Shown one piece after another: positions 25,108 through 63,634 of a stretch of DNA of 64,000 nucleotides (the stretch's first letter is position 1; every line of letters begins with the position of its first letter). The notes beneath the pieces were generated by a model. It worked only from the letters and a program-made list of their open reading frames with translations, did not search any database and was not told the DNA's origin. The DNA is taken from NCBI GenBank assembly GCA_964579675.1, contig CAZOIA010000002.1, positions 5,060 to 69,059 on the forward strand, written 5' to 3'. Origin of the DNA: an uncultured Planctomycetales bacterium (lineage in GTDB: Bacteria; Planctomycetota; Phycisphaerae; UBA1845; PWPN01). The position numbers were made by a program, and so were the translations under genes.

Positions 25108-25136
25108 CGTCCGCCGACCAGGTTGCGAAACAAGTA

Positions 25137-28297: not shown

Positions 28298-28316
28298 AAC
28301 GGATGAGATCCACCAC

Positions 28317-28378
28317 GGAGACATGGAGAAGACCGAAGACAGAGAGACGGAGAGAGAACAGAGAGAAAGAGAAAGGGG
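28317..28378 (+). repeat. Purine-rich tract (about 90% purine by eye) downstream of the BatA-like stop
   Basis: Sequence GGAGACATGGAGAAGACCGAAGACAGAGAGACGGAGAGAGAACAGAGAGAAAGAGAAAGGGG. It shares the 14-mer AGAGACGGAGAGAG with the 25.0 kb tract. Confidence 0.7.
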
Positions 28379-28381
28379 CTC

Positions 28382-28443
28382 GTTTAGCCGCGACCCAAAG
28401 GGGAGCGCGTTGGGTGTTTAGCCGCGACCCAAAGGGGAGCGCG
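28382..28443 (+). repeat. Two copies of the 28-nt hairpin repeat (variant GTTTAGCCGCGACCCAAAGGGGAGCGCG) joined by TTGGGT
   Basis: Copies at 28382-28409 and 28416-28443. The only difference from the other loci is one loop base (GAA to AAA). The same TTGGGT linker joins copies 3 and 4 of the 13.4 kb array. Confidence 0.85.
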
Positions 28444-28476
28444 AGAACGTGACTGAGGCAGAACAATAGAGTCATC

Positions 28477-30849: not shown

Positions 30850-30861
30850 GGCGGGGAGAAC

Positions 30862-30910
30862 GATGAATGATGAATGATGAATGATGAGCGATGAATGATG
30901 AACGATGAAC
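30862..30910 (+). repeat. Seven tandem heptads GATGAAY (GATGAAT x4, GATGAGC, GATGAAC x2) spanning the start of the next gene
   Basis: Perfect 7-nt phasing from 30862 to 30910. It begins 13 nt after the upstream stop (30847-30849). The annotated ATG 30905 lies in the last unit. Confidence 0.85.
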
Positions 30911-33967: not shown

Positions 33968-33970
33968 ACG

Positions 33971-38259: not shown

Positions 38260-38510
38260 GGCACGTCGCAGCCGGTCTCTTGTCACGTTCTCACATTGGC
38301 ACTTGCTCGCGGGCCGCGTCAGGCCATTCCGGGAGAGACGAGGCCAAGGCTTGCTGGGAGCCCCACCGATTACGTCACGGATTCCACGGGAGGTCATACG
38401 ACGTCATCACCATTGCCCCCAGGCTTGATCGTAGTGTAAGATACAGTGAACCCCGGCCGTTTGGGGCCGAACGGCATCTGGGCGAGCGGCAGCAGTCGCG
38501 GGGCGGCCAC

Positions 38511-40375: not shown

Positions 40376-40388
40376 AGCTACATATTAC

Positions 40389-40405
40389 CATTAGAAAACC
40401 TAATG
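40389..40405. promoter_or_regulatory. LysR-type operator (CATTAG-N5-CTAATG, contains T-N11-A) next to the lysR start
   Basis: Perfect 6-bp inverted repeat cattag aaaac ctaatg, starting 14 nt upstream of the LysR ATG. The same palindrome recurs at 40695-40711. Confidence 0.5.
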
Positions 40406-49700: not shown

Positions 49701-50232
49701 ACTCGTCCGAGGTCGGACTGGTCAGGGTAAGGGTGACGATCGGTACGTCGTCGATCTCGACCGGTTTGACCACCCAGCCGGCCACGCCCGGCGGGACGAT
49801 ATCAACGTGCTCTTCGATACGCTTGTACAGCTTGACCAGGCTGCGCTCGCGGTCTTCACCGACGTAGAACCGCGCGGTAATGATCGCCAGACCTTCGTGG
49901 GACATCGAGTAGACGTACTCGACGCCGTCGATCTGGTAGAGCAGCTTCTCCAGCGGCGTCGCGACAAGTTGCTCGACCTCGCCGGCGGAGTGTCCCGGGA
50001 AACGGACGTGCACATCCGCGAGGGGAACCACGATCTGCGGGTCTTCCTCGCGCGGCGTCACCAGCAGCGAGGTGATCCCCGACACCGCCGCCAGCAGAAT
50101 GAGGATGATGGAAAGGTGCGAGTCCAGAAACGCCCGGACGATCCGGTTGGTGAACTCGTGAGGTCGTGCCGTGCCCTCCGGGCTTTGCCCGGCGGACATG
50201 CGGGCCGAATCATCGCCGGGGCTGGGGGCCAT
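46735..50232 (-). CDS. RND efflux transporter permease (AcrB/CzcA superfamily)
   Basis: 1165-aa ORF with a 12-TM/two-large-loop architecture. N-terminus FTNRIVRAFLDSHLSIILILLAAVSGITSLLVTPREEDPQI, and the typical RND segment FALILSLGLLVDDPIVDVENI. Confidence 0.92.
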   Translation of the reverse strand: MAPSPGDDSARMSAGQSPEGTARPHEFTNRIVRAFLDSHLSIILILLAAVSGITSLLVTPREEDPQIVVPLADVHVRFPGHSAGEVEQLVATPLEKLLYQIDGVEYVYSMSHEGLAIITARFYVGEDRERSLVKLYKRIEEHVDIVPPGVAGWVVKPVEIDDVPIVTLTLTSPTSDEYVLRRVGEEVVERLAAVQNTSRAYVVGGRPRTVYVRPDPQRMQAHRISALELRRAVQAANVTRTAGEFTREDVGFRVEAGLALARPDELDNLVVGVFGDRPVFLRDVAQVVDGPAEATSYVRHGWGPARGFQEEPHVVGSLIGPPAGEAGQGISQPAVTIALAKKKGANAVWVARDILAACEELRTHVIPDDIEVVITRNYGLTANEKVNELIEALAVAVLFVIAVLVLGLGWREAVIVAVAVPVVFGLTLTVNMLAGFTINRVTLFALILSLGLLVDDPIVDVENISRHFALRRKASRAIVLDAVAEIRPPLITATLAVIVSFLPMSFITGMMGPYMRPMALNVPVAMAVSMLVAFTITPWLSYHVLNRSYNKGPSGTAGGDSQPRPERQDESDLDALKRTFLYRLFYPLMAPLLHQRWAAWAFLLVMGLLTVLSAGLAATRHVPLKMLPFDNKNELLLVLDFDEGTSLERSDAAAREMEDYLRNVPEVVDFTAYVGLASPMDFNGMVRHYYLRRGGNVGEIRVNFVGKHARVQQSHTIGLRLRDDLMAIAARGHANLKIVETPPGPPVISSLVGEVYGRPDHAYKDLIVAAQVLRARMEAEPGVVDVDDSLEADTRKLVFVTDKEKAALNGVSVADVADTIEMALAGKLLGTVRVAGERNPLRCELRLPRAIRSSPEGLSQIHVKGRTGGLVPLAEIGQWQETHVDKTIYHKNLQRVVYVFAETAGRPPADAVVDILADQKMGPEIPAARQVGSGWIADVGPRPVKGRTFFANGSGIAWFVPPGIRVDLAGEGEWKITLDVFRDLGLAFGAALLGIFVLLVAQTGSFALPVVVMLAIPLTILGIMPGFWLLNAVAGGHVGTYSDPIFFTATGMIGMIALAGIVTRDSIILVDFIHLSLARGRSLFDAIMESRVVRLRPILLTTGTAMLAAVPITIDPIFSGLAWALIFGLLASTVFTLFVIPLAYWLLYAGSSGGSPKKDNRLGGG

Positions 50233-50258
50233 GTTCAGATCCTCTCTGCGCTATCAAG

Positions 50259-51359
50259 TCAGACTCCGGCGGCGAGAGCCACGCGCTCCCCCTCGCGCAG
50301 ACCGGAGAGTACCTCCACGTTCTCTCCGAAGATGCGGCCCAGTTGCACGGCCCGACGGCGCAACACATCACGATCAGCTACTTCCACGATGTCAAGTTGT
50401 CCCACGCGGCGCACCGCCAAGCGCGGGATCACCAGGACTTTTTCCTCCTCCAGCGGGATCATGAGTCGCCCGAACATGCCTCCATAGACGCCGGGCGGAC
50501 AGGGCCCAGTCACCTTAACCGAGAAGGTCCGGCTGGCGGACTCCGCCTCCGGAACGATCTCGCTGATCTGCCCTTCGCAGGTCATCGCCAGAGCGTCCAC
50601 GCGAACCGGAACTCCCTGGCCGACCCGCAGCCGATGCGCCAGGGACTCACGAACCCGGGCGATCAGTTGCATCCGCGTCGGGTCGTAAAGCGCCACCAGG
50701 ACCTGGGCGGGTTTGACCGTGTCGCCCACTTCCACCTGCTTGTCGATCACGATGCCATCCATCGGGGAAGTAATGGTGGAGTAAGCGAGAATGGTTTCGG
50801 CCTCCTTGAGCATGTGATCGGCACGTTGCCACTCCGCCTCGGCGGACTTCAGGGACGTGGTGACGCGATCGAGTTCGATCCTGGCGGCGGAATCCTGCTG
50901 GAACAGCTTCTGAACACGGTCGTACTCAATCTTCGCCTGGTCGCGGGTAGCCTTGGCGGCCTCAAGGGCGGCGGCGGCCTGTTCCTTCCGTGCCTTGACG
51001 TCCGCATCATCCAGTTGAACGAGGACCTGACCCTTGCGGACCGGATCGCCTGCTTTGATCAGAACCGCGGCCACCTTGGCCAGGAGTTTGGACGCGACCG
51101 CCGCCTCGTGGACCGCACGAATGGTTCCGGCCGCGGTTTCCGTCCCGGGTACGCGGATTGTGCGGGCCTCGGCCAGGGGCAGGTCGCCCGCCGGGCGGCC
51201 GGCGGGTGCGGTGGTAGTCGGCGCGGGGGTGCCTACCTTCGGATGGAACACTCCCATGAGCCACATCATCATCACGACCACACCAGCGACCATGGCCACC
51301 GCCACAGCCACGCCTCGAATGACAAACCAGGAACGCGACGAAGCAATGGTTCGTTTCAT
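50259..51359 (-). CDS. RND periplasmic adaptor (HlyD/MFP family)
   Basis: N-terminal TM anchor, coiled-coil hairpin (QLDDADVKARKEQAAAALEAAKATRDQAKIEYDRVQKLF), and beta-barrel/lipoyl motifs. Lies 26 nt upstream of the RND gene. Confidence 0.88.
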   Translation of the reverse strand: MKRTIASSRSWFVIRGVAVAVAMVAGVVVMMMWLMGVFHPKVGTPAPTTTAPAGRPAGDLPLAEARTIRVPGTETAAGTIRAVHEAAVASKLLAKVAAVLIKAGDPVRKGQVLVQLDDADVKARKEQAAAALEAAKATRDQAKIEYDRVQKLFQQDSAARIELDRVTTSLKSAEAEWQRADHMLKEAETILAYSTITSPMDGIVIDKQVEVGDTVKPAQVLVALYDPTRMQLIARVRESLAHRLRVGQGVPVRVDALAMTCEGQISEIVPEAESASRTFSVKVTGPCPPGVYGGMFGRLMIPLEEEKVLVIPRLAVRRVGQLDIVEVADRDVLRRRAVQLGRIFGENVEVLSGLREGERVALAAGV

Positions 51360-51589
51360 GATGACGTCTCCCGTTTGTGCTCATACGTGGCCCGGCGCCT
51401 CGCCACCCCCGGCGGCGAGCTCCCGGACATCCCGCGAGTCCCCGGGCCGCCGATGCGGAGGGCGACGTATCAACGTTACTATGCCGTGCCAACTGTGGAT
51501 ACAGGCTCACGGGCCTCGCAAACCTCATGGGCATGTCGTCATTTGTCATAACACCTTGTGAGGCAAGTACTTGCGGACTTCCGGTCGGC

Positions 51590-51618
51590 TTGACCCCTGT
51601 GTACCCAGCGCCGATAAT
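51590..51618 (+). promoter_or_regulatory. Candidate sigma70 promoter heading the oxidative-stress gene island
   Basis: -35 TTGACC (51590-51595), exact 17-nt spacer, -10 GATAAT (51613-51618). About 150 nt upstream of the tpx ATG. Motif match only. Confidence 0.35.
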
Positions 51619-51770
51619 GACGGCTGTCCGGGCTGGCGCTGGTCGGCTCGCGATGTTGGCCGCCAGGACGTCCTTGGCAAGGAGGGTCTTCGGCATGCCA
51701 CACTTCTGAGAGCTTGCGAATCCGGGTGCCGAATGCGAAAAACGCGCCGGGACGAAAGGAGACGGTGCTG

Positions 51771-52286
51771 ATGATAGAGCGCGAGAACGCCGCGACATTC
51801 AAGGGAAGCCCGCTCACGCTCGTGGGGCCTGAGATCAAGGTGGGCGATCAGGCTCCCCACTTCAAACTGGTGGGTAGCAGCCTGGCCGACATCGACTGCG
51901 AGTCTTTCCATGGCAAGGTGCGGGTGCTGAGCGTCGCGCCGAGCATCGACACCCCGGTCTGCGCCACCCAGACACGCACGTTCAACCAGGAGGCGGCCAG
52001 CCTGTCGGAAGACGTGGTGATTCTGAGTGTGAGCCTCGACCTGCCCTTCGCCTTGGCGCGCTTCTGCGGCGCCGAAGGGATCGAGCACGTCATTACGGCC
52101 AGCGACTACAAGTACCGCACTTTTGGCGAGGCTTACGGCGTCTACATCCGCGAGTTGGGTCTGCTGACCCGCGCGGTGTTCGTCATTGACCGGGCGGACA
52201 AGATCGTGCACGCCGAGTACGTTCCCGAGATTACGAACGAGCCTGACTATGCGGCAGCGCTTGCGGCGGTGGAGGCGGCTCTGTAA
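51771..52286 (+). CDS. tpx: Thiol peroxidase Tpx (atypical 2-Cys peroxiredoxin)
   Basis: MIERENAATFKGSPLTLVGPEIKVGDQAPHFKLV..., SIDTPVCATQTRTFN (peroxidatic Cys) and LPFALARFCGAEGI (resolving Cys). AAAGGAG RBS. Confidence 0.9.
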   Translation: MIERENAATFKGSPLTLVGPEIKVGDQAPHFKLVGSSLADIDCESFHGKVRVLSVAPSIDTPVCATQTRTFNQEAASLSEDVVILSVSLDLPFALARFCGAEGIEHVITASDYKYRTFGEAYGVYIRELGLLTRAVFVIDRADKIVHAEYVPEITNEPDYAAALAAVEAAL

Positions 52287-52331
52287 GAAACCGGATTTGT
52301 CCATGGAACCCGTTGCGGAAAGGATCGAGAA

Positions 52332-52850
52332 ATGCTGAAGCCGAAGATACAGGATGCTTTCAACAGGCAAATCAACGCGGAGCTTTACTCCTCTTACCTC
52401 TACCTCTCAATGTCGGCGTACTTCGAGTCGATCAACCTCAAGGGAATGGCGAACTGGATGCGGATCCAGGCTGGCGAGGAGATGCAGCACGCGATGAAGT
52501 TCTACGATTCTATCAACGAGCGCGGCGGCAGGGTGCTCCTGACGCAAGTAGAGGGGCCGAAGACGGAATGGGACTCCCCGTTGGCGGCTTTCGACGAGAC
52601 TTGCCGGCACGAGGCTAAGGTCACTGGTCTGATCAATGACCTCGTGGACCTGGCCATCAAGGAGAAAGACCATGCGGCCAACGTCTTTCTGCAGTGGTTC
52701 GTCACGGAGCAGGTCGAGGAGGAGGCTACGGCCAAGGAGATTGCAGACAAGCTGAGGATTGCCGGCGACAACGCCGGCGTGCTGTTCATGATCGATCAGG
52801 AGCTGGGCCAGCGAACAACCGCCCCAGCGACGGCTACTGAGTCGGCATAG
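52332..52850 (+). CDS. ftn: Non-haem ferritin (FtnA-type)
   Basis: MLKPKIQDAFNRQINAELYSSYLYLSMSAYFE..., AGEEMQHAMKFYD and FLQWFVTEQVEEE carry the ferroxidase-centre residues. Confidence 0.9.
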   Translation: MLKPKIQDAFNRQINAELYSSYLYLSMSAYFESINLKGMANWMRIQAGEEMQHAMKFYDSINERGGRVLLTQVEGPKTEWDSPLAAFDETCRHEAKVTGLINDLVDLAIKEKDHAANVFLQWFVTEQVEEEATAKEIADKLRIAGDNAGVLFMIDQELGQRTTAPATATESA

Positions 52851-53100
52851 GCGGGCTTTCGGACTCGAACGGGTGGGCAAGGACGGCCCCCAGCTTCGAG
52901 ACGATGAGGTTATCCAGGACCGAAATGTGCGCTCACATTGCCGAGGGCAAGCGGGGTCAGTTTCGCGGCATCAGTGCGGGATGGCGCATGGGATTGGCGG
53001 CGCTTGGTAAGGCAGAAAATGGAGGTGCTCATTGCTCAAAGACGGAACTCGGGAATCACAAGAAGAGAATGTGTCCATCCAAGAGAAGGAGATAGGGACC

Positions 53101-54513
53101 ATGACACGCAGACGAACAGAAACCAGTCGCGCGTGGGCTGCGGTTACACTGTCGTTTCTCTTAATCGCAGCGGTCGGGCTTGCCTTCACCAGGGCGCTGG
53201 CGGAGAAGCCCTCCAGCTACTCCCCGGTCGTGATCAAGGAGGACTTCGAGGCGACGATGGCGCGGATGAAGGCGGCCAAGCCGGAGGTGATGAAACGACA
53301 GATGGATCTGCTGGCCGAGCGGTACGACCTGAGCGACCGGCCGGCAGAGGGGATTACGATGTCACGGGGCAAGGCGATCCAGCAAGGCGTGCGGGTTAAG
53401 CTTCCCCCCGGTGTGACCTGGCAGAAACTTGCGCAAATGGCGCCGGAGGAGATCCGCGAGAAAGGGCTCTTCCCCAAGGGTTTCCTTCCGCTGCCGCACC
53501 CGAACCACCCGGAGGGAGGCATGGTCTTCCCCCAACACCACATCGACGAAATCAAGCGGCAGGAGGGGCGCGATCTGACGCGTTTCGACCTCGACTACGA
53601 CTTACCCGCACATTTCCTCCCGGAGTTTCCGCCGCCGATTTATCTGACCACGCGCCCGGATCTGGGAGATGTGTCGCAAGGCAAGGTCGTGACGATCGAC
53701 AACTACTATGAGCTTTTCAACGGCATTCTGAACCCCAAGCAGATTGAAGGGCTTCGCCTGCTGGTGACGCCATTCCCGCAGCAGCAGTTCAACCAGACGG
53801 AGGACCGGCGCTCCGCCCGCCCCAGTCGGGGCGTAACCTGTTTTGATTGCCACGTTAACGGGCACACGAACGCCACGACGCATCTGGTTGGCGACATCCG
53901 GCCCCAGGAGTTTCGCCACGGTCTGGACACGCCTCCTCTGCGCGGGGTCAACATCCAGCGACTGTTCGGCTCGCAGCGAGCCTTAAAGAGCATTGAGGAC
54001 TTCACGGAGTTCGAGCAGCGAGCCGCCTATTTCGACGGCGACCCGGTGATCGGGACCAAGAAGGGCCTCAACATTCTCGAGCGAGCCAGTCAGGTCCATT
54101 TCATGGCCGAGATGGAGGAGTTGTTCGACTTTCCGCCCGCGCCGAAGCTGGACGTGTTCGGGAAGCTCGACCCGAGCAAGGCCACCGAGTCCGAATTGCG
54201 TGGGCAAGAGGTCTTCTTCGGCAAGAGCCGTTGCGCCGAGTGCCACCCCGCCCCGTACTATACCGATAACCTGATGCACAACCTTCGGACGGAGCGGTTC
54301 TTCAGGCCGCAGATGATCAACGGCCGGATGGCCGCGTGCGATGGCCCGATCAAGACGTTCCCGCTTCGCGGTATCAAGGACTCCCCGCCTTACCTGCACG
54401 ACAGGCGGCTGCTGACCCTGGAGGACACGGTAGAGTTCTTTAACCTGGTCACTGGAGTGAACCTGACCAACCAGGAAAAAAAGGATCTTGTGGCCTTTCT
54501 GCGCGGTCTGTAG
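53101..54513 (+). CDS. Di-haem cytochrome c peroxidase / MauG-family protein with ~250-aa N-terminal extension
   Basis: Signal/TM segment MTRRRTETSRAWAAVTLSFLLIAAVGLAFT. Two CxxCH motifs (CFDCH, CAECH) ~135 aa apart. C-terminal FPLRGIKDSPPYLHDRRLLTLEDTVEFF is typical of CCP. Confidence 0.8.
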   Translation: MTRRRTETSRAWAAVTLSFLLIAAVGLAFTRALAEKPSSYSPVVIKEDFEATMARMKAAKPEVMKRQMDLLAERYDLSDRPAEGITMSRGKAIQQGVRVKLPPGVTWQKLAQMAPEEIREKGLFPKGFLPLPHPNHPEGGMVFPQHHIDEIKRQEGRDLTRFDLDYDLPAHFLPEFPPPIYLTTRPDLGDVSQGKVVTIDNYYELFNGILNPKQIEGLRLLVTPFPQQQFNQTEDRRSARPSRGVTCFDCHVNGHTNATTHLVGDIRPQEFRHGLDTPPLRGVNIQRLFGSQRALKSIEDFTEFEQRAAYFDGDPVIGTKKGLNILERASQVHFMAEMEELFDFPPAPKLDVFGKLDPSKATESELRGQEVFFGKSRCAECHPAPYYTDNLMHNLRTERFFRPQMINGRMAACDGPIKTFPLRGIKDSPPYLHDRRLLTLEDTVEFFNLVTGVNLTNQEKKDLVAFLRGL

Positions 54514-54582
54514 GCCGTCGCCGCAGGGCGGCCGAAGGAATTGTGTGATTGTCCGACCGACGTGTAGAGAGGAGGAGTTGAC

Positions 54583-54891
54583 ATGCCTGAGTTCTGTTCT
54601 TCGTTTTCCGGTCTCGCGAATGACCGGAAGCTCACGAGTGAGGAGCTGATACGCGCGATCCGGTTCATGATCGCAGCCGAATACGAAGCGATTCAGCTTT
54701 ATATGCAGCTTGCCGAATCCACCGACAACGCCTTGGCCATTGAGGTGCTCAAGGACATAGCGGACGAAGAACGCGTGCATGCGGGCGAGTTCCTGCGTCT
54801 TTTGAACGAACTGGCGCCCGACGAAGAGCGGTTCTATGCCGAAGGCGCGAAAGAGGTCCAAGAGGAAATCGAAGATATGAAGAAGAGTTGA
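54583..54891 (+). CDS. Small ferritin-like (rubrerythrin-superfamily, EncFtn/Flp-type) protein
   Basis: 102 aa. Two-helix di-iron half-site pattern AAEYEAIQLY...IADEERVHAGEF (E...ExxH). GAGGAGG RBS. No C-terminal encapsulin targeting peptide is evident. Family call by eye. Confidence 0.7.
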   Translation: MPEFCSSFSGLANDRKLTSEELIRAIRFMIAAEYEAIQLYMQLAESTDNALAIEVLKDIADEERVHAGEFLRLLNELAPDEERFYAEGAKEVQEEIEDMKKS

Positions 54892-54897
54892 TCGGAG

Positions 54898-55071
54898 TTG
54901 CGGTGGGAAACACCGGATTTCGCGGCCCGGGCGGTCATGCCGGACCACCGTGTCGCGGAGTTGAAGCTTTCGCCGTACCGTGGCAAGTATGTGATCCTGT
55001 TCTTCTATCGCTTGGACTTCACGTTCGTGTGCCCATCGGAGATCATCGCCTTCGACGAGGGACTGAAGTAA
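54898..55071 (+). pseudogene. 5' stub of a typical 2-Cys peroxiredoxin (AhpC/Prx1) gene
   Basis: Translation [57 protein letters not shown]. This matches only the first ~55 residues of Prx, including the peroxidatic-Cys motif DFTFVCPSE. It terminates at TAA 55069-55071, 14 nt before the hemerythrin ATG. Confidence 0.7.
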
Positions 55072-55085
55072 TGGCAGGAGGATAA

Positions 55086-55523
55086 ATGGCTTTCTTCGAA
55101 TGGGACCATCGTTTCAGCGTTCGCGTTGCGGAAATCGACCGCCAACACCAGCGGTTGATTGACCTTATTAACCAGTTGTATGAGGCCATGAACCAAGGCA
55201 ACGACTCGAACACATTGACATCCGCAGTCAATGAGCTGGACACCATGACCTCCGTGCTGGATGAGCTGATCGACTACTCGAGGTACCACTTCTCGACGGA
55301 AGAAAAGTACATGCTCGAATACGCGTATCCCGAATATGACAAGCACAAGGGACAACACGATCACTTTGCCGACAAAGTCAGAACGCTCAGACAGGATTTC
55401 GACGAGGGTAAAGCGCTCTTGTCCATGGAGATCATGCAGTTTCTTCGCGACTGGTGGAAGGAACACATCCTGGGTACGGACAAGAGGTTTGGTCCCTTTT
55501 TCAACGAGAAGGGTCTTACTTGA
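55086..55523 (+). CDS. Bacteriohemerythrin
   Basis: [29 protein letters not shown]..., [17 protein letters not shown] and [13 protein letters not shown] give the complete His/Glu/Asp di-iron ligand set. AGGAGGA RBS. Confidence 0.9.
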
Positions 55524-55588
55524 GAAAACCGTTGGCGGTGATGCTATCCAGCAACGAAAGGAAGCAAAAGAAAGTAGAGGAACAAAAG

Positions 55589-55969
55589 ATGGCGACCGAA
55601 CGATTGCAGGTTTACAAGTGTCCGATTTGTGGGAACATGGTCGAGATGATCCGGGCGGGGGCGGGCGAACTCGTCTGCTGCGGTCAGCCGATGATGTTAC
55701 TGACCGAGAATACGACCGACGCGGCGCGGGAGAAGCACGTCCCAGTCATCGAGAAGGTTGAAGGCGGCGTCAAGGTGAAAGTGGGTTCCGCCCCCCACCC
55801 GATGGAAAGTAAGCATTACATCGAGTGGATCGAGGCCATCGCCGACGGCAAGGCGTACCGCCAGTTTCTCAAACCGGGCGATGCGCCGGAAGCCGTTTTC
55901 CCGCTTCAGACTGCCCACGTCACCGCCCGCGAGTTCTGCAACATCCATGGGTTGTGGAAAGGTGAATGA
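55589..55969 (+). CDS. dfx: Desulfoferrodoxin (2Fe superoxide reductase)
   Basis: [35 protein letters not shown] (desulforedoxin-like centre I). [20 protein letters not shown] and FCNIHGLW (centre II). ATG 55589. Confidence 0.9.
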
Positions 55970-56030
55970 CGCGCGAGCAGCTCAGGTATGTTTGCCAGAG
56001 AAGCCAGCGCAAGTCAAAAGGAGATCCGGA

Positions 56031-56606
56031 ATGGGTCGTTTGAAAGGCAGCGAGACGGAGAAGAACCTGCTGACCGGGTTTGCCGGTGAGTCGCAGGCCA
56101 GGAACCGGTACACGTACTTTGCCAGCCAGGCGAGAAAAGAGGGTTTCGTTCAGATTTCAGCCATTTTCGAAGAGACCGCCAATCAAGAGCGGGAGCACGC
56201 CAAGCGGCTGTTCAAGTTCCTCGAAGGCGGCGAGGTCGAGATCCAGGCTGCTTTCCCCGCGGGTGTGATTGGGAGCACGGCCGAGAATCTCAAGGCCGCT
56301 GCCGGCGGCGAGCACTACGAATGGGAAAGCATGTACCCCGGGTTCGCCAAGATCGCCCGTGATGAAGGCTTCAACGAGATCGCCAAGGTGTTCGAGGCCA
56401 TTGCCGTCGCGGAAAAGCAGCATGAAAGGCGATACCTCGGCCTGCTGGAGAATGTAGAAGCCGGCACGGTATTCAAGAAGAGCAAGAAGGTGGTCTGGCG
56501 GTGTCGGAACTGCGGCTACCTGCATGAGGGCGATGAGGCGCCAGAGACCTGTCCGGCCTGTACGCACCCGCAGGCACATTTCGAGCTGCTGGCCGAGAAC
56601 TGGTAA
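56031..56606 (+). CDS. rbr: Rubrerythrin
   Basis: [39 protein letters not shown]..., [10 protein letters not shown], and a C-terminal rubredoxin-like [25 protein letters not shown]. Confidence 0.92.
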
Positions 56607-56636
56607 TTGGCTCGTCGATGGCAAAGGGAGAACCGG

Positions 56637-58283
56637 ATGTTCTGCTACCAGTGTGAACAAACGGCGAAGGGGGCCGGATGCACCGCGAAGGGCGTGTGCG
56701 GTAAGGACGCACCGACGGCGGATCTGCAAGACGTTCTTCTGTATCTGGCCAAGGGTATCTCCATGTATGCTCACCGGGCCCGGGAGCTGGGTGCGCGCGA
56801 CCGGGACATCGACGTATTCGTGGTTGAGGCTTTGTTTACCACCGTGACGAACGTGAACTTCGACCCGGAGCGTCTCCAAAATCTCCTTGCCCGGGCCGTG
56901 GACGTGCGCGAGAAGGCCGAAAACCTGTACGCAACGGCGTGCCGGAAATCAGGGCACAAGGCCGAAACGGTGGGCGGCCCGGCGACGTTCAGACCGGCAG
57001 GCGATCTGGACGGGCTTCGCGAGCAGGCGGCGGAGATTTCCATCGCCAAACGTAAGGAGAGCCTGGGGGACGACATCACAGGGCTACAGGAACTGTTGAC
57101 CTACGGGCTCAAGGGATTGGCCGCCTATGCCGACCACGCGCAGATCCTCGGGCATGAGGACGATGCGATCTACGCCTTCCTGCACAAGGCCCTCGATGCC
57201 CTCACCCGGGACAATCCCGGCGTGGACGCACTGCTCGGGCTCTGTCTCAAGGCGGGCGAGGTGAATCTCCGGACGATGGAGATCCTGGACGCGGCCAACA
57301 CCGGGGCCTACGATCATCCCGTGCCGACGCCCGTGAGGATCACGCCTGTTGCGGGCAAGGCGATAGTCGTGTCCGGCCACGATCTCAAGGACCTCGAAGA
57401 ACTGCTCAAGCAGACGGAAGGAAAAGGCATCAATGTTTATACGCACGGCGAGATGCTTCCGGCTCACGGCTATCCCGGTCTGAAGAAGTACAGGCACCTG
57501 GTGGGCAACTATGGCGGCGCCTGGCAAGACCAGCAAAAGGAGTTCGACGCGCTGCCCGGTGCGATCCTGATGACCACCAACTGCATTCAGAATCCACGGG
57601 ACAGTTACAAGAATCGCATCTTCACCTCGGGACTGGTGGCCTGGCCGGGGGTGAAACACATCGGGCGGCAGCGCGACTTCTCGCCGGTGATCGAGGCGGC
57701 CCTGGGCGCGCCGGGATTCGACCAGGACCAACCGGAGAAGACCATCCTGGTCGGGTTCGGGCACGAAGCGGTCATGCAGGTGGCTGACGAAGTGGTCCAG
57801 GCGGTGAAAAGTGGCAAGATTCGACATTTCTTCCTGATCGGCGGATGTGACGGCGCCAGGCCCGGGCGCAACTACTACACGCGGTTTGCCGAGTCGGTTC
57901 CTGACGATTGCGTGATTCTCACCCTCGCTTGCGGCAAGTACCGGTTCAACAAGCTCGATTTTGGAGAGATCGACGGCATCCCCCGCCTGCTGGATGTTGG
58001 ACAGTGCAATGACGCCTACTCCGCCATCCAGATCGCCGTGGCCCTGGCCAAGGCGTTTGACTGTGGCGTGAACGACCTGCCGCTATCCCTGATCATATCC
58101 TGGTACGAGCAGAAGGCCGTTTGCATCCTGCTGACGTTGCTGCATCTGGGCATCAGGAACATCCGACTGGGACCGACACTCCCGGCGTTTGTCACACCCA
58201 ACGTCTTGAAGGTGCTGGTTGAGAAGTTCAACATCAGTCCGATCGGCACGCCGGAAGAGGACCTGGCCGCGATTCTGGGGTGA
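56637..58283 (+). CDS. hcp: Hybrid-cluster protein (hydroxylamine reductase / NO-stress protein)
   Basis: [24 protein letters not shown]-terminal Cys motif. ~548 aa with typical downstream motifs ([39 protein letters not shown]). Confidence 0.93.
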
Positions 58284-58366
58284 GTTTGCGGCCACGCCTG
58301 CCCGGCTTCGGCGCCACGTGCCTGGCAGTAAGGCGATCGAATAGCCTCCGGCAGAAAAGGTGAACC

Positions 58367-58519
58367 ATGGAGGCGATTGCACTGCGTCAGGGTCCAGCCG
58401 AAGTCGAGCGAGTGGACCTGGCCAAGCGGAACCCGAGGACGGGTGAGGTTCTGGACAAGACGATCCGTTGCGGTGTGTGCCGCACCGATCAGGAGATCCT
58501 TCGCCATGGCCAAGCATGA
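58367..58519 (+). pseudogene. 5' stub of a Zn-dependent alcohol/glucose dehydrogenase gene (paralogous to 59324-60424)
   Basis: MEAIALRQGPAEVERVDLAKRNPRTGEVLDKTIRCGVCRTDQEILRHGQA* aligns residue for residue with the N-terminus of the full gene (MKAIALRAGSTSVELTDLAKPAPRTGEVLVKTVSCGLCGTDREIIRRG). It breaks off exactly where the AOX-like ATG (58506) begins. It has its own RBS (AAAGGTGAACC ATG). Confidence 0.65.
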
Positions 58520-59204
58520 GCACACCATGGGCAAGGAACTCGACCTTAAGGCCGAGCAGGAGAAGACGCTGCAAACACCAGTGATGAAAGCGAACGTCAT
58601 CTTGCGAGCCATGTATCTCGCGATGGACTTGATTCACGGCGCCAAGCGGACCTTGCCCAAATTCAAGATGATCGAGATCCTGGCTCGCTATCCCTATTGG
58701 GCATGGGAGAACGGTTCGTACCACCGGCTGACCCGCAACTACTCCAAAGTGGAGTACGCCAGGAAGGAGGATTCAGAACCTGCTCTCCGGCACATTGAGC
58801 TTGGGCGGCATTCCCAGGATAACGAGCAGTGGCACTTGATGCTGATCGAAGACATCATGCGGCGAAAGGGAATGAGGCAACGCTGGCTCGTGTCGTCGTT
58901 TGTGGCGCGGTTTCTGGCTTTCGGCTATCTCATTCTCACCCGGCTTCTCTACCGCTTGAAGCCGGAGTGGTCGTTTGCCATGAACGCCAGGTTCGAATCC
59001 CATGCGGAACACGAGTACATGCGCCTTGTTCAAGAGCATCCGGAATGGGAAGGCGAACCGGTGGAGTCCGAGTACTTCGAACACTACCCCCGACAGAAGA
59101 CGATGGCCGATCTGTTCAGGCGGATCGGTCTCGACGAACGAGACCACATGACCGAATCGATCGAGGAATACGAGCGCCTGACCGGCCGAACGCTTTCAGA
59201 ATAG
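58506..59204 (+). CDS. Alternative-oxidase-like (AOX/PTOX family) membrane-associated di-iron carboxylate protein
   Basis: Four-motif di-iron pattern in order: KMIEILARYPYWAW (E), DNEQWHLM (ExxH), ARFESHAEHEY (E) and LDERDHM (ExxH). 232 aa. ATG 58506 (MAKHEHTMGKE). Confidence 0.7.
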   Translation: MAKHEHTMGKELDLKAEQEKTLQTPVMKANVILRAMYLAMDLIHGAKRTLPKFKMIEILARYPYWAWENGSYHRLTRNYSKVEYARKEDSEPALRHIELGRHSQDNEQWHLMLIEDIMRRKGMRQRWLVSSFVARFLAFGYLILTRLLYRLKPEWSFAMNARFESHAEHEYMRLVQEHPEWEGEPVESEYFEHYPRQKTMADLFRRIGLDERDHMTESIEEYERLTGRTLSE

Positions 59205-59323
59205 CCCTCCCGACGGCACAGGCGCGGCTTACGGGGTTGCGAGGAAGAGAGCAGGCGTAACAAACGGATTCAACGCGAACCCGAGCAAGATGCCGGATGG
59301 GTACCGACGAGAACTGTGAAGCC

Positions 59324-60424
59324 ATGAAAGCGATAGCGTTACGCGCGGGTTCAACCTCCGTCGAGTTGACGGACCTGGCCAAGCCGGCGCCCAGAACCGG
59401 CGAGGTTCTGGTCAAGACCGTTAGTTGCGGCCTGTGCGGCACCGACCGGGAGATCATTCGCCGCGGCATCCCCGACGTCCCGCCGGGCGAGGACTTCCTA
59501 GTCTTGGGCCATGAGGCCCTGGGCCGGGTCGAAGCGTTGGGCCCCGGAACGGAAACCGACCTGAAACCGGGTGACCTGGTGACGGTGATGGTTCGCCGCG
59601 GCTGCGGTAAGTGCAATGCCTGCCTCACGGGACACGTGGACTACTGCTACACCGGCCAGTACACCGAGCGCGGCATCCACAAGGTTCACGGCTTCTTCAC
59701 GGAGTACTTCGTTGACCAGCCGCAGTACGTCGTGCCCGTGCCGGCTGACCTGGAGGATCTCGGCGTCCTGGCGGAACCCATGAGCGTGTCCGCCAAGGCG
59801 TACGAAGTGGCGGCTGGGCTCATGGGGCGGGTATGTTTCGACGGTGCCTGCTCGTTCCGTGCAAGGCAGGAGAAGGCACTTGTCGCCGGCCATGGTCCGA
59901 TCGGGATGCTTGCGGCACTGCTGCTGATGACGGAAGGGTACGACGTCAGCGTCCTGGGCCGCCGCAAGCCGGGCGACTTCCAGCGAGCGTTCGTCGAGTC
60001 GTTCGGGGCGCGGTATCTGGATATCACCAAGGACGAGGACCGGGTATTTGCGGAGCAGGAAGGCGGCTTTCTGCTCATTATCGAGGCGGCGGGCATAGCG
60101 GAGTTGACGTTCCGGCTGCCGGGGCTGCTGAGTCGCAACGGCATTCTCGTGCTGACGGGTGTGCCGCGTGGGCCGCAGGAGATCTGCCTCGACGGGAACA
60201 CGCTCATGGCGAGCCTGGTGCGGTTCAACCAGACGATCACCGGCACGGTCAATGCTTCACGCGAGAACTTCAAAATGGGTCTTCGGTACCTGGAGGCGTT
60301 CAAGGAGAAGTCCCCCGAAACGGTCAGGGGCATCATTACCAGCCGCTACACACTCGACAACTGGCAAGACGCCTTTGGCGCAAAGAACCAGGATGAGATC
60401 AAAGCGGTCATCGAGTTCGAATGA
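59324..60424 (+). CDS. Zn-dependent medium-chain dehydrogenase (glucose 1-dehydrogenase / threonine-dehydrogenase-like)
   Basis: MKAIALRAGSTSVELTDL..., CGLCGTDREI (catalytic Zn Cys), structural Zn Cys cluster GCGKCNACLTGHVDYC, and Rossmann VAGHGPIG. Confidence 0.85.
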   Translation: MKAIALRAGSTSVELTDLAKPAPRTGEVLVKTVSCGLCGTDREIIRRGIPDVPPGEDFLVLGHEALGRVEALGPGTETDLKPGDLVTVMVRRGCGKCNACLTGHVDYCYTGQYTERGIHKVHGFFTEYFVDQPQYVVPVPADLEDLGVLAEPMSVSAKAYEVAAGLMGRVCFDGACSFRARQEKALVAGHGPIGMLAALLLMTEGYDVSVLGRRKPGDFQRAFVESFGARYLDITKDEDRVFAEQEGGFLLIIEAAGIAELTFRLPGLLSRNGILVLTGVPRGPQEICLDGNTLMASLVRFNQTITGTVNASRENFKMGLRYLEAFKEKSPETVRGIITSRYTLDNWQDAFGAKNQDEIKAVIEFE

Positions 60425-61734
60425 AGACGTATGACATCGTTGCAGGGATCATCACGGCAAGCTGGCAGGTTCTTGGCCAGATGTCGCCGTATCTGCTGTT
60501 CGGCTTTCTCGTGGCCGGGGCGCTTGCGGTATGGGTTTCGCCCGAGTGGGTGGAACGCCACCTGGGCCGGCGCGGGCTTGGTCCTGTGTTCAAGGCGTCA
60601 CTGTTCGGAGTGCCGCTTCCGTTGTGTTCGTGCGGGGTGATACCGGTGTCGGCCTCGCTTCGCCGGCACGGCGCGAGCCGGGCAGCCACGACCGCGTTTC
60701 TGCTCTCCACGCCCCAGACGGGTGTGGACAGCATTGCCGTCACGTACGCGCTGCTCGGGCCGGTCTTCGCAGTCTTCCGTCCGATCGCGGCTTTGCTCAC
60801 CGGCTTTGTCGGCGGCGGGCTGGTGCAGGTTCTCGGCGAGGCGGGCGGGACGGGCAGTACGAAGGACTCTGGCCCTGCCGCCTGCACCGAAGCCTGCTGT
60901 GCGGAGAGGCACGAGGGCGGCGTTCTGTTTCGTGCTCTGCGGTACGGGTTTTTGACCTTGCCGCGGGACATCGGGCCGGCGCTGCTGGTGGGAATCATTA
61001 TCGCCGGGGCGATGGCGGCACTCGTGCCACAGGGTCTTTTGAACGCGTATGTCGGTAGGGGTGTGTTGTCGATTCTGTTGTTGATGGCGGCGGGCGTGCC
61101 GGTCTACGTCTGTGCGACCGCATCGGTTCCGATCGCGGCCGGCTTCATGCATATAGGCGCCTCGCCCGGGGCGGCCCTGGCATTCCTGATTGCCGGACCC
61201 GCCACCAATGCCGCCACGTTCACCACGGTCTGGAAGGTGCTGGGACGGCAGACGGCGATCCTGTATCTTGCCACCGTTGCCGCCAGCGCGATCACCTGCG
61301 GATTGGCGCTGGACCGGCTGGTCCCGGCGGTGGCGGCTGCCCTGCCGCAGCTTGACAGCCATGCTCACGCTGCTGAAGCGGGCGGTCTGTTCTACCACGC
61401 GGCGGCAGTCGTGCTCCTTGTCGTACTGGCGTTTTCCTATCGGGCAACGCCGCGCCACCGGGCCGGCAAAGAAACTGTGGAAAAGGAGCCGAGCAAAGTC
61501 GCCAACGCCGCTGACGAACGCCGCCTGGAACTCGCGGTGACGGGCATGACCTGCAGCCACTGCGCCGAGAGCGTCTCGCGTGCGCTTGCTGAGTGTGCCG
61601 GCGTCCACTCCGTAGAGGTGGATTTGAGCGGCGGACGGGCTGTCGTGAAGGGCGGCGGTATCGATCCCGACCGGCTTCTGGCCGCAGTTGCCGGACTGGG
61701 ATACACGGCTAAGGTGGCGGGCGAAACGGCGTGA
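60421..61734 (+). CDS. Permease (PF03773/DUF318-type, SO_0444-like Cu/Zn efflux transporter) with C-terminal HMA metal-binding domain
   Basis: ~10 TM segments with paired CSCGVIP and YVCATASVP motifs. The C-terminal LELAVTGMTCSHCAESVSRAL...GYTAKV is a heavy-metal-associated domain with GMTCxxC. ATGA overlap with the ADH gene. Confidence 0.8.
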   Translation: MKTYDIVAGIITASWQVLGQMSPYLLFGFLVAGALAVWVSPEWVERHLGRRGLGPVFKASLFGVPLPLCSCGVIPVSASLRRHGASRAATTAFLLSTPQTGVDSIAVTYALLGPVFAVFRPIAALLTGFVGGGLVQVLGEAGGTGSTKDSGPAACTEACCAERHEGGVLFRALRYGFLTLPRDIGPALLVGIIIAGAMAALVPQGLLNAYVGRGVLSILLLMAAGVPVYVCATASVPIAAGFMHIGASPGAALAFLIAGPATNAATFTTVWKVLGRQTAILYLATVAASAITCGLALDRLVPAVAAALPQLDSHAHAAEAGGLFYHAAAVVLLVVLAFSYRATPRHRAGKETVEKEPSKVANAADERRLELAVTGMTCSHCAESVSRALAECAGVHSVEVDLSGGRAVVKGGGIDPDRLLAAVAGLGYTAKVAGETA

Positions 61735-61786
61735 TGCGTGAGCGACTTATCGAGGAAATGAGGAACAGGCAGGTTACGGATAGAAC

Positions 61787-62992
61787 ATGATGAACACGAC
61801 ATTGCGGGACAACATCGACTGGGTCGGGTACGTGGATTGGACGGTCCGGGACTTTCACAGCTACGAGACCGACCGCGGCGCTACTTATAACGCCTATCTC
61901 GTCCGTGACGAGAAGACGGCGCTGATCGACACGGTCAAGGCGCCGTTTGTGGGCGACCTCCTCACGAAAGTGTCGGGGATGGTCCGTCCTGCGAAGGTGG
62001 ACTACGTGGTCTGCAACCATGCCGAGGCCGATCATGCCAGCGCTTTGCCGCAGGTTATGGCGGCTCTGCCCAATGCAACGCTGATATGCGACGAGAAGTG
62101 CAATGCGGCGCTTGCCAGACACTACGACACGTCGAGCTGGAAGGTACGGATAGTGTCCACCGGCGACACCGTCCCGCTCGGCAAGCGGACGCTCCAGTTC
62201 ATAGAGACCCCCATGGTGCACTGGCCCGAGTCCATGTTCACCTACGTTCCCGAGGAGAAACTGCTCTTTTCGATGGACGCCTTCGGCCAGCACTACGCCA
62301 GTTCACAGCGATTCGACGACGAGGTGTGCCTGTCTGCCGTGATGGCCGAGGCTAAAACCTACTACGCCAACATCGTCATGCCCTACGGCAAGCGCGTGGC
62401 CTCAGTGTTGGAACAAGCGGCCGGACTCGACATCGAGATGATCGCACCCGCGCATGGCGTGATCTGGCGCAGTCATATCGCAAAGATCCTGGAAGCGTAT
62501 GAAGACTGGGCGGTCTGCCGGCCCAGCCCCAAGGTGCTGGTTGTCTACGATACCATGTGGGACAGTACCGGCGAGATGGCCCGGGCGATCCACGAAGGCG
62601 CGTCCTTGCCCGGCGTGGCTGCTGAACTCATTCACATCCGGCGTTCCAGCCTGACCCGGATCGCAACGGAGGTTCTCGACGCGGCCACTGTTGCCTTCGG
62701 CTCGTCCACGCTCAACCAGGGCATGATGCCGATGGCGGGGGCGGTGCTGACGTACCTGAAGGGGTTGAGACCGGCGGGCAAAGCCGGTTTCGCGTTCGGC
62801 TCCTACGGATGGGGCAAGGGCGGACCGGAAGCGGTGGATGAATGCCTGAAAGCCATGACGTGGGAGATTCTGCACGACCCGATCAAGTCTCAATACCGCC
62901 CCACACGGGACATACTGGATGAATGCCGGTCGGCAGGGAAAGTGCTCGCCGAAAAGGCAAGAGCGATGGGCGCTCGTCGCGAAACGGTCTAG
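61787..62992 (+). CDS. Flavodiiron protein (class A; O2/NO reductase, FprA/ROO-like)
   Basis: N-terminal MBL-like di-iron domain (YNAYLVRDEKTALIDTV, NHAEADHASAL). C-terminal flavodoxin-like domain (KVLVVYDTMWDSTGEMA, FGSSTLNQGM). Confidence 0.9.
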   Translation: MMNTTLRDNIDWVGYVDWTVRDFHSYETDRGATYNAYLVRDEKTALIDTVKAPFVGDLLTKVSGMVRPAKVDYVVCNHAEADHASALPQVMAALPNATLICDEKCNAALARHYDTSSWKVRIVSTGDTVPLGKRTLQFIETPMVHWPESMFTYVPEEKLLFSMDAFGQHYASSQRFDDEVCLSAVMAEAKTYYANIVMPYGKRVASVLEQAAGLDIEMIAPAHGVIWRSHIAKILEAYEDWAVCRPSPKVLVVYDTMWDSTGEMARAIHEGASLPGVAAELIHIRRSSLTRIATEVLDAATVAFGSSTLNQGMMPMAGAVLTYLKGLRPAGKAGFAFGSYGWGKGGPEAVDECLKAMTWEILHDPIKSQYRPTRDILDECRSAGKVLAEKARAMGARRETV

Positions 62993-63019
62993 AATGGCAA
63001 CGCTCCGTGTTCGATAAGT

Positions 63020-63634
63020 GTGCAGTTCCAGATTGTGGGTGGCACTCCCCTACGGGAGCGAGTGGGAGATCTCGGCTTGGACTTGCCCAGTCTTCTGGGA
63101 ATTGCGGTTGGATTGGCGATGGACGCGTTTGCGGTCTCAATTGCGGCCGGGCTGTCTATACGTCGCGTAACGTCCCGGCACGTGTTCCGCCTTGCCTTTC
63201 ATTTCGGCCTTTTCCAGTTCATGATGCCGATTCTCGGCTGGTGGGCGGGCTCCACGGTCTCTTCACACATTGCCGATTACGACCATTGGCTGGCATGCGG
63301 GCTGCTCAGCGTCATAGGCGGCAAGATGCTGTTCGATGCCTGGTCGGGGAAAGCAAAGGGAACGAAGTCCGATCCGACCAGAGGTTGGCTTCTGGTGGGG
63401 CTCTCGATTGCGACAAGCGTTGACGCATTTGCGGTGGGCCTCAGCATGGCGTTTCTTCGAGTCTCCATTTTGCTACCATGTATTCTCATTGGCCTTGTCG
63501 CGGCGGCCTTCAGCGCTGCAGGCGTCATCTTTGGCAGGCGGCTGCTTCGCGACTGGGGGCGCGCTGCCGATGTGGTTGGGGGCTGCGTTCTGGCACTCAT
63601 TGGCGTCAGGATTCTCGTGTCACATTTGGCATGA
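63020..63634 (+). CDS. mntP: Manganese efflux pump MntP
   Basis: GLAMDAFAVSIAAG and a second VDAFAVGLSMA repeat (DUF204 x2), with 6 TM segments. The true start is probably internal (GTG 63062 or TTG 63077, after GGGAG), because MntP normally begins ~12 aa before MDAF. Confidence 0.85.
   Translation: MQFQIVGGTPLRERVGDLGLDLPSLLGIAVGLAMDAFAVSIAAGLSIRRVTSRHVFRLAFHFGLFQFMMPILGWWAGSTVSSHIADYDHWLACGLLSVIGGKMLFDAWSGKAKGTKSDPTRGWLLVGLSIATSVDAFAVGLSMAFLRVSILLPCILIGLVAAAFSAAGVIFGRRLLRDWGRAADVVGGCVLALIGVRILVSHLA

Follow-up and report, generated by a model that had tools for sequence, protein, structure and literature searches.

The window analysed here is a 64-kb stretch of DNA from an uncultured Planctomycetales bacterium, and all positions are those of the whole window. 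At 51,771–63,634 on its forward strand it carries a cluster (the island) of 13 intact co-oriented genes, recognised from the open reading frame (ORF) listing and family scans. It is likely that this is a native Phycisphaerae cluster for oxidative and nitrosative stress and for metal handling, which has been rearranged, has lost perR together with its operator, and is now probably independent of PerR. The PerR gene and the operator-bearing promoter have been lost from the window's cluster. A previous reading of the letters alone, referred to as the sequence-only reading, had described a dense co-oriented block of anaerobe-type defences against oxygen, reactive oxygen species and nitric oxide (desulfoferrodoxin, rubrerythrin, flavodiiron protein, hybrid-cluster protein (Hcp) and thiol peroxidase (Tpx)) with iron, manganese and copper/zinc handling, and the family assignments bear this description out.

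The island has no regulator gene, the 64-kb window has no homologue of Fur, PerR or CRP, and a tblastn search of the 64 kb with the PerR-like proteins of two relatives gave a best E of 0.7. The statement of the sequence-only reading that no PerR- or OxyR-type gene is present in the island therefore stands, the scans and tblastn being empty and the sole LysR-type gene not being OxyR-like. This gene, at 39,476–40,375 on the reverse strand, was considered as an OxyR candidate and set aside, ranking about 20th against the OxyR model with 75 bits where the cut-off is 329. A small regulator hidden in the 411-bp spacer upstream of tpx was likewise rejected, since the ORFs of this spacer match no Pfam family and their codon-position G+C content (GC) is like that of non-coding DNA.

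That the control of the cluster is unknown, as had been stated, can be put more sharply, since a PerR-like repressor, with its operator, stands at the head of the clusters in its relatives, and the window copy has neither. The relatives, numbered here as loci L001 onwards, are DNA fetched around homologues of the dihaem protein described below and metagenome contigs recovered with the flavodiiron protein. Among these, 34 related clusters contain three or more stress genes in the same orientation, and the head could be assessed in 23. A Fur-family gene is present in 18 of the 23 and is always first. For the Fur-family proteins of the relatives the highest scores are those with PerR models (E = 1e-28 to 3e-30), models of Fur, Irr and Zur scoring lower; the equivalog cut-offs are not reached. 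The promoters of the relatives, of the form TTGACA-17-TAnTAA, overlap a palindromic operator of approximately CTAATA-N7-TTAGCGATA.

A matrix for this operator was built as a Gibbs motif from the promoters of 15 relatives. It finds one site per relative locus, at the cluster head, and also finds the operator at 24–26 bits in three held-out loci (L085, L091 and L158). The same operator type is kept in L084, L004, L001 and L086. On the window the matrix reaches at most 12.9 bits, the level of shuffled sequence (12.2 ± 2.0), and on the island at most 9.4 bits, within the mntP coding sequence. The top match in the window, at 40,372–40,396, was rejected as a PerR site because it lies in the divergent promoter region of the LysR gene and scores at the shuffled level. 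In the spacers of the island there is no stretch of 18 nt in which 13 or more are A/T, which is the composition of the operators of the relatives; four such stretches are found in the island, all within coding sequence.

L084, the relative closest in its dihaem protein, has a sigma-70-family gene (266 amino acids) between the PerR-type operator and perR (2256–3673 of that locus), and a CRP/FNR-family gene just upstream. This suggests an extra regulatory layer in L084 that is lacking in the window.

Upstream of tpx there is one candidate promoter:

51,590–51,618, forward strand: sigma-70-like promoter candidate TTGACC-17-GATAAT, 153 bp upstream of tpx

This is the only sigma-70-like site that the sequence-only reading had seen, and it is present as described, but it is no more than would be expected by chance, as one such consensus was found at 51–64 kb and 2.7 are expected. 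With the operator matrix, nothing above chance and thus no PerR-type operator was found over this promoter. A GCCG-N7-CGGC inverted repeat, read from the sequence, overlaps the candidate -10 box at ~51,609–51,623. This repeat is one of the points that favour PerR control in trans, in which perR would now sit at another place in the genome and the matrix would have missed an operator that is distant or has diverged. The view being of 64 kb of the genome, and the operators visibly differing between sub-clades of the relatives, also fit such an arrangement. It is nevertheless unlikely, since the relatives closest in their dihaem protein (L084 at 88% identity; L004, L001 and L086 at 83–85%) keep one operator type, the matrix recovers held-out sites yet nowhere in the island rises above the shuffled background, and no spacer of the island has an operator-like AT-rich stretch of 18 nt.

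That the cluster has been rearranged is recorded in three gene remnants:

52,886–52,957, forward strand: remnant of a rubredoxin-domain (RUBY_RBDX) gene, its last ~24 codons, located by tblastn with the RBDX protein of L004
54,907–55,080, forward strand: peroxiredoxin pseudogene stub, residues ~8–65 of a 195-residue peroxiredoxin, with a stop codon at its end
58,367–58,510, forward strand: zinc-dehydrogenase (ADH) stub, the first ~48 codons, a copy of the 5' end of the intact ADH gene

Two stubs had been recognised earlier, and both the peroxiredoxin and the ADH stub are real gene remnants; the third, the RBDX tail, had been missed. The latter has 58% identity to residues 88–111 of the L004 protein (tblastn, E = 8e-4), and in the relatives the intact rubredoxin-domain gene sits between the ferritin and dihaem genes. 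The peroxiredoxin stub has 74% identity to residues 8–65 of the L001 peroxiredoxin (E = 4e-24) and matches Pfam AhpC-TSA over profile positions 6–50 of 124 (E = 1e-10). The ADH stub has 65% amino-acid identity to residues 10–57 of the intact ADH (E = 2e-13) and forms part of a direct repeat of 146 nt, 73% identical, with copies 957 bp apart that bracket the AOX-like gene. In a motif and repeat search among the spacers of the island this was the only real repeat, and the other shared motifs and repeats were discarded as short chance matches within coding sequence.

The arrangement is also found in other assemblies. Loci L171 (Logan assembly, SRR8556705) and L172 (JGI 3300031379) are 100% identical to the window over the RND, HlyD, tpx, ferritin and dihaem genes, and L167 has 100% identity across hcp, the ADH stub, the AOX-like gene, ADH and the exporter. 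Together these three match the window at 100% across 49,491–53,744 and 57,906–61,092. Exact-protein matches for tpx and the AOX-like gene come from contigs of 2.8–4.3 kb that are identical to the window. Because independent assemblies reproduce the junction, the loss of perR is not an assembly artefact.

Remnants are found in the relatives as well. L173 has stubs of rubrerythrin-like, dihaem and flavodiiron protein genes (at 1029–1118, 2423–2608 and 5188–5283), L085 has peroxiredoxin fragments at 5488–6120 and L086 an Hcp fragment at 7237–7749. As stubs are common in the relatives too, these clusters are recombination-prone mosaics, and recombination that leaves stubs appears to be a general habit of theirs. 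Homologues of the HlyD and RND genes at the left boundary of the cluster (44–52% identical) are located downstream of the flavodiiron protein gene, on the same strand, in L097, L100, L112 and L154. The window differs from these in that its HlyD and RND genes are upstream of the cluster and divergent from it. As a speculation, a single inversion that broke the DNA at the perR end could give the layout of the window and remove perR.

The genes of the cluster point to an origin within the Phycisphaerae. The best tpx homologues are from Planctomycetota/Phycisphaerae, at 80–88% identity, and the best matches of the dihaem protein are from metagenome-assembled genomes (MAGs) of Phycisphaerae and Planctomycetota. 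L004 (Phycisphaerae bacterium MFD13433 bin31), which of the scanned species-representative genomes matches best, has the order PerR-like, ferritin, rubrerythrin-like, RBDX, dihaem, tpx, DUF302, rubrerythrin-like, rubrerythrin, DsbH-like, SO_0444/HMA, flavodiiron protein, mntP and ZIP. In L084 the order is sigma-70, PerR-like, ferritin, dihaem, peroxiredoxin, a gene with no assigned name, hemerythrin and desulfoferrodoxin. The same gene theme, with the order shuffled, is found in L001 (Phycisphaerales CP070744.1), L085, L086 and L173 and in dozens of contigs from metagenomes. Core genes and gene order recur throughout the Phycisphaerae at 60–88% identity. In the PerR-headed clusters of Phycisphaerae and Planctomycetota (L004, L001, L084, L085, L086 and L173) the core genes are those of the window; this common core comprises ferritin, the dihaem protein, Tpx or peroxiredoxin, hemerythrin, desulfoferrodoxin, rubrerythrin, the SO_0444/HMA exporter, the flavodiiron protein and MntP. 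Co-orientation, short spacers, GC below that of the flanks and stubs are also common to these clusters and the window. The window differs from them in having no PerR-like first gene and no operator promoter, in being headed by tpx, in having its peroxiredoxin only as a stub, and in the addition of EncB-like, Hcp, AOX-like and ADH genes.

In a neighbour-joining tree of identity distances between 85 dihaem proteins, which broadly follows taxonomy, the window protein groups with those of L084, L001, L085, L004 and L086 inside a Planctomycetota clade, among Phycisphaerae. ORF family scans and a repeat search found no integrase, transposase or flanking or terminal repeats at the cluster borders. 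Scans for Rfam elements, riboswitches among them, and for tRNAs found none at the island, their only hit being a tRNA-Leu at 35,389.

The lower GC of the island, which had been taken as a sign of foreign origin, is real. The window averages 0.640, the island 0.606 and the rest of the window 0.648, and the GC of island genes differs from the background (Mann-Whitney p = 4e-5). No equal-sized (12.3-kb) window elsewhere in the 64 kb is under 0.627. The size of the dip had however been overstated at 43–50%, figures taken from single 60-nt lines; the 52.9–56.1 kb core has a GC of 0.578 and the lowest 1-kb window 0.539. The dip is nearly equal by codon position, at -4.6, -5.1 and -4.0 points for positions 1, 2 and 3. 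When the island proteins were recoded with the codon usage of the background genes, the GC predicted from the amino acids was 0.624 for the island and 0.654 for the background genes, so that amino-acid composition accounts for 3.0 of the 4.5-point coding GC deficit. Synonymous residuals were judged against the leave-one-out values of 26 background genes (standard deviation (sd) 0.015), this background being ~51 kb of the window rather than the genome. Ten island genes are within 2 sd, and three of the 13 are outliers beyond 2.5 sd, namely EncB-like (z = -2.8), hemerythrin (-3.2) and mntP (-4.0). Low-GC counterparts exist in the relatives, where the hemerythrin gene of L084 has a GC of 0.51 and the mntP gene of L004 a third-position GC of 0.63. 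Homologous clusters are likewise below their own flanks, by 2.6 points in L001, 3.8 in L086 and 5.1 in L085, mainly at codon position 2. The tetranucleotide correlation with the rest of the window falls to 0.90 in the island, compared with 0.95–0.98 elsewhere.

The description as compositionally foreign is thus not supported, as amino acids explain about two thirds of the deficit and the same dip is seen in the clusters of three relatives. For these two reasons the low GC appears to travel with the genes rather than to mark a recent import. It is probably a property of small charged metalloproteins, a few of which have inherited atypical codon usage.

Horizontal acquisition, of the whole 12-kb block or of its 52.9–56.1 kb core, from a lower-GC anaerobe is accordingly very unlikely. 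It would be in keeping with the GC minimum and the tetranucleotide correlation, with the synonymous usage of the three outlier genes, and with EncB-like, AOX-like and ADH genes that have no counterpart in the relatives, the AOX-like gene being solitary elsewhere and bracketed here by the ADH repeat scar; the 70–97% identity of the dihaem protein across phyla is compatible with some ancient transfer. Against this, the deficit is in its larger part a matter of amino acids and the dip recurs in three relatives and in the L084 and L004 orthologues. The recurrence of the core genes and order across the Phycisphaerae, the nesting of the window's dihaem protein among them, and borders free of tRNA, integrase, transposase and terminal repeats also stand against it. 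Judged by the refuting conditions that the sequence-only reading had itself set, a horizontal origin for the whole island is not supported.

A native, rearranged cluster being preferred, its genes and the two at its left flank are:

46,735–50,232, reverse strand: RND (AcrB-type) efflux transporter, left flank, outside the cluster (Pfam ACR_tran, E = 1.6e-138)
50,259–51,359, reverse strand: HlyD-type membrane-fusion protein, left boundary, divergent from the cluster (Pfam HlyD_D23, HlyD_3)
51,771–52,286, forward strand: tpx, thiol peroxidase (NCBIfam NF001808 equivalog, 213 vs 123 bits)
52,332–52,850, forward strand: non-haem ferritin (Pfam Ferritin, E = 8.7e-43)
53,101–54,513, forward strand: exported dihaem c-type protein, 470 amino acids, a distant relative of the cytochrome c peroxidase (CCP)/MauG group
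54,583–54,891, forward strand: EncB-family ferritin-like protein (rubrerythrin-fold), 102 amino acids (NF058679, 96.2 vs 90 bits; Pfam Rubrerythrin, EncFtn-like)
55,086–55,523, forward strand: bacteriohemerythrin (NCBIfam NF033749, 145 vs 84 bits)
55,589–55,969, forward strand: desulfoferrodoxin, 2Fe superoxide reductase (TIGR00320 equivalog, 208 vs 147 bits)
56,031–56,606, forward strand: rubrerythrin (NF045767 equivalog, 310 vs 200 bits)
56,637–58,283, forward strand: Hcp, hybrid-cluster protein (hydroxylamine reductase) (NF003658 equivalog, 838 vs 367 bits)
58,506–59,204, forward strand: AOX-like di-iron carboxylate protein, 232 amino acids (Pfam AOX PF01786, 25.0 vs 22.7 bits)
59,297–60,424, forward strand: medium-chain (zinc-type) dehydrogenase (Pfam ADH_N and Glu_dehyd_C; no NCBIfam equivalog reached)
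60,421–61,734, forward strand: SO_0444-family Cu/Zn efflux permease with a C-terminal CopZ-like HMA domain (NF033936, 341 vs 300 bits; Pfam ArsP_1 and HMA)
61,787–62,992, forward strand: class-A flavodiiron protein, O2/NO reductase (Pfam ODP and Flavodoxin_1)
63,020–63,634, forward strand: MntP-type manganese exporter, the final cluster gene (Pfam Mntp, E = 6e-47)

Identities were taken from Pfam scans and from NCBIfam curated cut-offs applied to the window ORFs, with scores above given as bits vs cut-off. Six genes pass curated NCBI cut-offs, through five equivalog models and the EncB-like subfamily model. The remainder have clear Pfam matches, among them ferritin, hemerythrin, the flavodiiron protein (ODP and flavodoxin domains), MntP and the medium-chain dehydrogenase, except for the marginal AOX match and the dihaem protein, which has no Pfam match. 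All the genes that the sequence-only reading had named are on the forward strand and in their described places, but the intact genes number 13 rather than 14.

Several of the genes keep their neighbours in the relatives. The ferritin has 67–78% identity to the ferritin placed after perR in these clusters. The hemerythrin is 70% identical to that of L084, where desulfoferrodoxin is also the next gene. The SO_0444/HMA exporter gene is directly upstream of the flavodiiron protein gene in 20 of 80 related loci, and the order of flavodiiron protein and mntP is also found in L004, L088 and L173. The flavodiiron protein resembles flavorubredoxin models, scores under their cut-offs and has no rubredoxin domain. 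Hcp has an N-terminal Cx2Cx8Cx5C motif, read from the sequence. A 350-bp spacer 3' of mntP is followed by an unrelated gene from ~63,985.

The short spacers that had been described were confirmed, ranging from a 4-bp overlap to 92 bp, with the exception of three of 194–250 bp, each of which is occupied by one gene remnant. Sigma-70-like sites and terminators within the cluster do not exceed what would be expected by chance. These observations bear on whether the genes instead form several independent transcription units side by side with separate controls, for example tpx-ferritin, dihaem to hcp, AOX-like-ADH-exporter and flavodiiron protein-mntP. The three longer spacers could hold promoters, the gene order is shuffled among the relatives, and the AOX-like/ADH module and hcp are additions, all of which would suit separate units. 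On the other hand, what fills the longer spacers is remnant rather than recognisable promoter sequence, the others are at most 92 bp with one overlap, the interior lacks sites above chance, and in the relatives a single head operator serves up to 14 co-oriented genes. Separate units are consequently possible but on the doubtful side.

The working of the cluster that is proposed here follows from the preferred reading of a native cluster without its repressor. The window's cluster is a rearranged descendant of the PerR-headed type, with tpx now at its head beside the divergent RND efflux operon. The three remnants record deletions and insertions, and the EncB-like gene, hcp and the AOX-like/ADH pair are additions to the conserved core. 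Going by what these families are known to do, desulfoferrodoxin would convert superoxide to hydrogen peroxide, rubrerythrin and Tpx would remove cytoplasmic peroxide, and the exported dihaem protein would probably remove peroxide in the periplasm. The flavodiiron protein and Hcp are similarly expected to remove oxygen, nitric oxide and hydroxylamine, and hemerythrin to bind oxygen. Ferritin and the EncB-like protein may keep iron from Fenton chemistry, and MntP and the SO_0444/HMA exporter may adjust the manganese and copper/zinc pools.

The single operator at the head of the clusters in the relatives argues for one PerR-repressed array. In the window, transcription is probably from a PerR-independent promoter upstream of tpx, for which the site at 51,590–51,618 is the candidate. 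Expression would then be constitutive, or under some trans-acting factor. As a precedent, in strain 630 delta-erm of Clostridioides difficile a DNA-binding-deficient PerR leads to constitutive derepression of the rubrerythrin operon and to higher oxygen tolerance (PMC8546684). It is proposed tentatively that at least one of two things holds, either that the lineage has discarded PerR control and the cluster is constitutive, or that the dihaem protein is a new periplasmic peroxide enzyme.

A number of points weigh against a native cluster that has escaped PerR. Five of the 23 assessable clusters have no recognisable Fur gene, these being mostly partial arsP-flavodiiron protein-ZIP sub-clusters. 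The operator matrix rests on 15 sites and is computed from sequence; perR may lie elsewhere in the genome, and the operator may have diverged past detection by the matrix. The promoter candidate is a single consensus match at chance frequency, and planctomycetal promoters are poorly known. Internal promoters are possible, and the single 13-gene transcript is putative. The island set keeps a small shift in synonymous usage (residual p = 0.003). Some piecemeal acquisition is likely because the EncB-like, AOX-like and ADH genes have no counterparts in the clusters of the relatives.

The dihaem protein, which is identical to P0001, was called a di-haem cytochrome c peroxidase in the sequence-only reading. 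It does have two CxxCH motifs, at residues 248–252 and 379–383, which are invariant in 20 homologues, and its sequence begins with an N-terminal hydrophobic signal or anchor. However, it matches no Pfam family at E <= 0.01, the CCP/MauG model included, and only residues ~336–470 resemble known proteins, in the form of the C-terminal haem domain of bacterial CCP/MauG (NCBIfam MauG, E = 5e-10; solved CCP structures, profile E = 1e-7 to 3e-5). Residues 1–335, including the first haem site, match nothing known. The name is therefore approximate, fitting the C-terminal haem domain best. Like the bacterial dihaem CCP/MauG proteins (Pfam PF03150; 1iqc, 3o5c, 1nml, 6e1c), it has an export signal and two CxxCH motifs ~130 residues apart, and its C-terminal haem domain can be aligned with theirs, including the PY(F/L)HD motif. 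Its genomic company is also peroxide-related, with PerR-like proteins, peroxiredoxin and, in L002, a catalase whose gene adjoins that of the dihaem protein. It differs from these proteins in its length, 470 compared with ~320 amino acids, and the canonical CCPs are far less conserved than this family.

The family contains more than 8,000 clusters at 90% identity, and nearly all full-length members fall into a handful at 50%; pairwise identity is 70–97%, with a median of 78% (residues 45–470). It spans at least 10 phyla, being found in Planctomycetota, Desulfobacterota, Nitrospirota, Acidobacteriota, Proteobacteria, Brocadiales, Verrucomicrobiota, Bacteroidota, Armatimonadota, Binatia and Hydrogenedentota. 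A Fur-family gene is near the dihaem gene in 15 of 86 loci, and is directly upstream in several of them, from several phyla. Members carry the public labels 'cytochrome B6' or 'cytochrome c peroxidase'. An AlphaFold2 model built on a 20-sequence alignment has a mean pLDDT of 45.6, a low value owing to a family so uniform that it gives no useful covariation. The family may represent haem enzymes of a new kind that handle peroxide in the periplasm.

The genes added to the core have different backgrounds. The EncB-like protein covers positions 1–98 of 117 in the NF058679 model, and since the match stops there its C-terminal targeting region may be missing. No homologue was found in any related locus fetched, and no encapsulin shell was found among the window ORFs scanned with Pfam. 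Among the genes of the cluster this is the foremost candidate for recent acquisition. The Pfam match of the AOX-like protein spans profile positions 94–208 only, and its di-iron ExxH motifs are read as NEQWH and ERDH. It has no NCBIfam or PDB match, and is therefore a distant member of AOX/PTOX at best. Its homologues number ~2,800, mostly unnamed and from uncultured anaerobe lineages; those with names are from MAGs of Hydrogenedentes, Marinimicrobia, Margulisbacteria, Kiritimatiellae and Spirochaetota. In L168–L170 the gene is solitary and in unrelated contexts. Counterparts of the EncB-like, AOX-like and ADH genes are absent from the clusters of the relatives, and hcp is only sometimes near them, as in L091 and as a fragment in L086.

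PerR regulons of strict anaerobes are known from Clostridium acetobutylicum and Desulfovibrio vulgaris. These have the same toolkit as the window, with rubrerythrin, desulfoferrodoxin, flavodiiron protein, peroxiredoxins and ferritin-like proteins, and the relatives of the window, as in the strict-anaerobe operons, carry a PerR-like repressor within the operon that it presumably represses. In C. difficile the rbr1 operon is repressed by PerR (PMC8546684). The window cluster differs from such operons in having no PerR gene or box, in being larger, with 13 genes, and in including metal exporters, Hcp, hemerythrin and the exported dihaem protein. Like acquired genomic islands it is compact, on a single strand and of lower GC than its surroundings; what sets it apart from these is the lack of mobility genes, of a tRNA target and of terminal repeats, its conservation in relatives, and a composition that is largely protein-driven. 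The cluster is ordinary in kind, a variant of the PerR-type anaerobe defence operon that is marked by the loss of perR and its operator and by the scars of rearrangement.

Anaerobic Phycisphaerae are abundant in sediments and digesters. To our knowledge, almost nothing is known of how they cope with oxygen. The clusters compared here point to a shared design in the lineage, with a PerR-like repressor and one operator and, in a long array that is often reshuffled, genes for rubrerythrin, superoxide reductase, flavodiiron protein, peroxiredoxin, ferritin and metal exporters. A variant that lacks both repressor and operator, such as this genome, could serve as a natural test of whether defences of this type can become permanently 'on' in nature. 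The very conserved and unannotated dihaem protein is likely to take part in the peroxide defence of many anaerobic phyla. These results leave the present understanding of defence against oxidative stress as it was.

Elsewhere in the window, 17 kb upstream of the island, an operon at 24,000–34,909 encodes MoxR (AAA_3), DUF58 and BatA/VWA proteins of the Bacteroides 'aerotolerance' (Bat) type, and is preceded by a gene for a PQQ_2/beta-propeller protein of 1,559 amino acids (19,293–23,972). This operon is the second locus of the window associated with oxygen tolerance. The LysR-family gene mentioned above is divergent from a gene with a Glu_synthase domain and adjoins an AraC-family regulator gene at 38,280–39,422. 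The promoter region shared by the LysR and Glu_synthase genes (40,368–40,404) contains the AT-rich near-palindrome CTACATATTACCATTAG at 40,378–40,394, which is probably the LysR regulator's own operator. On the reverse strand at 11,821–15,398, a B12-binding radical-SAM enzyme adjoins a RACo-type corrinoid reductive activase. Such enzymes are typical of strict anaerobes, and the pair therefore fits an anaerobic lifestyle for this bacterium.

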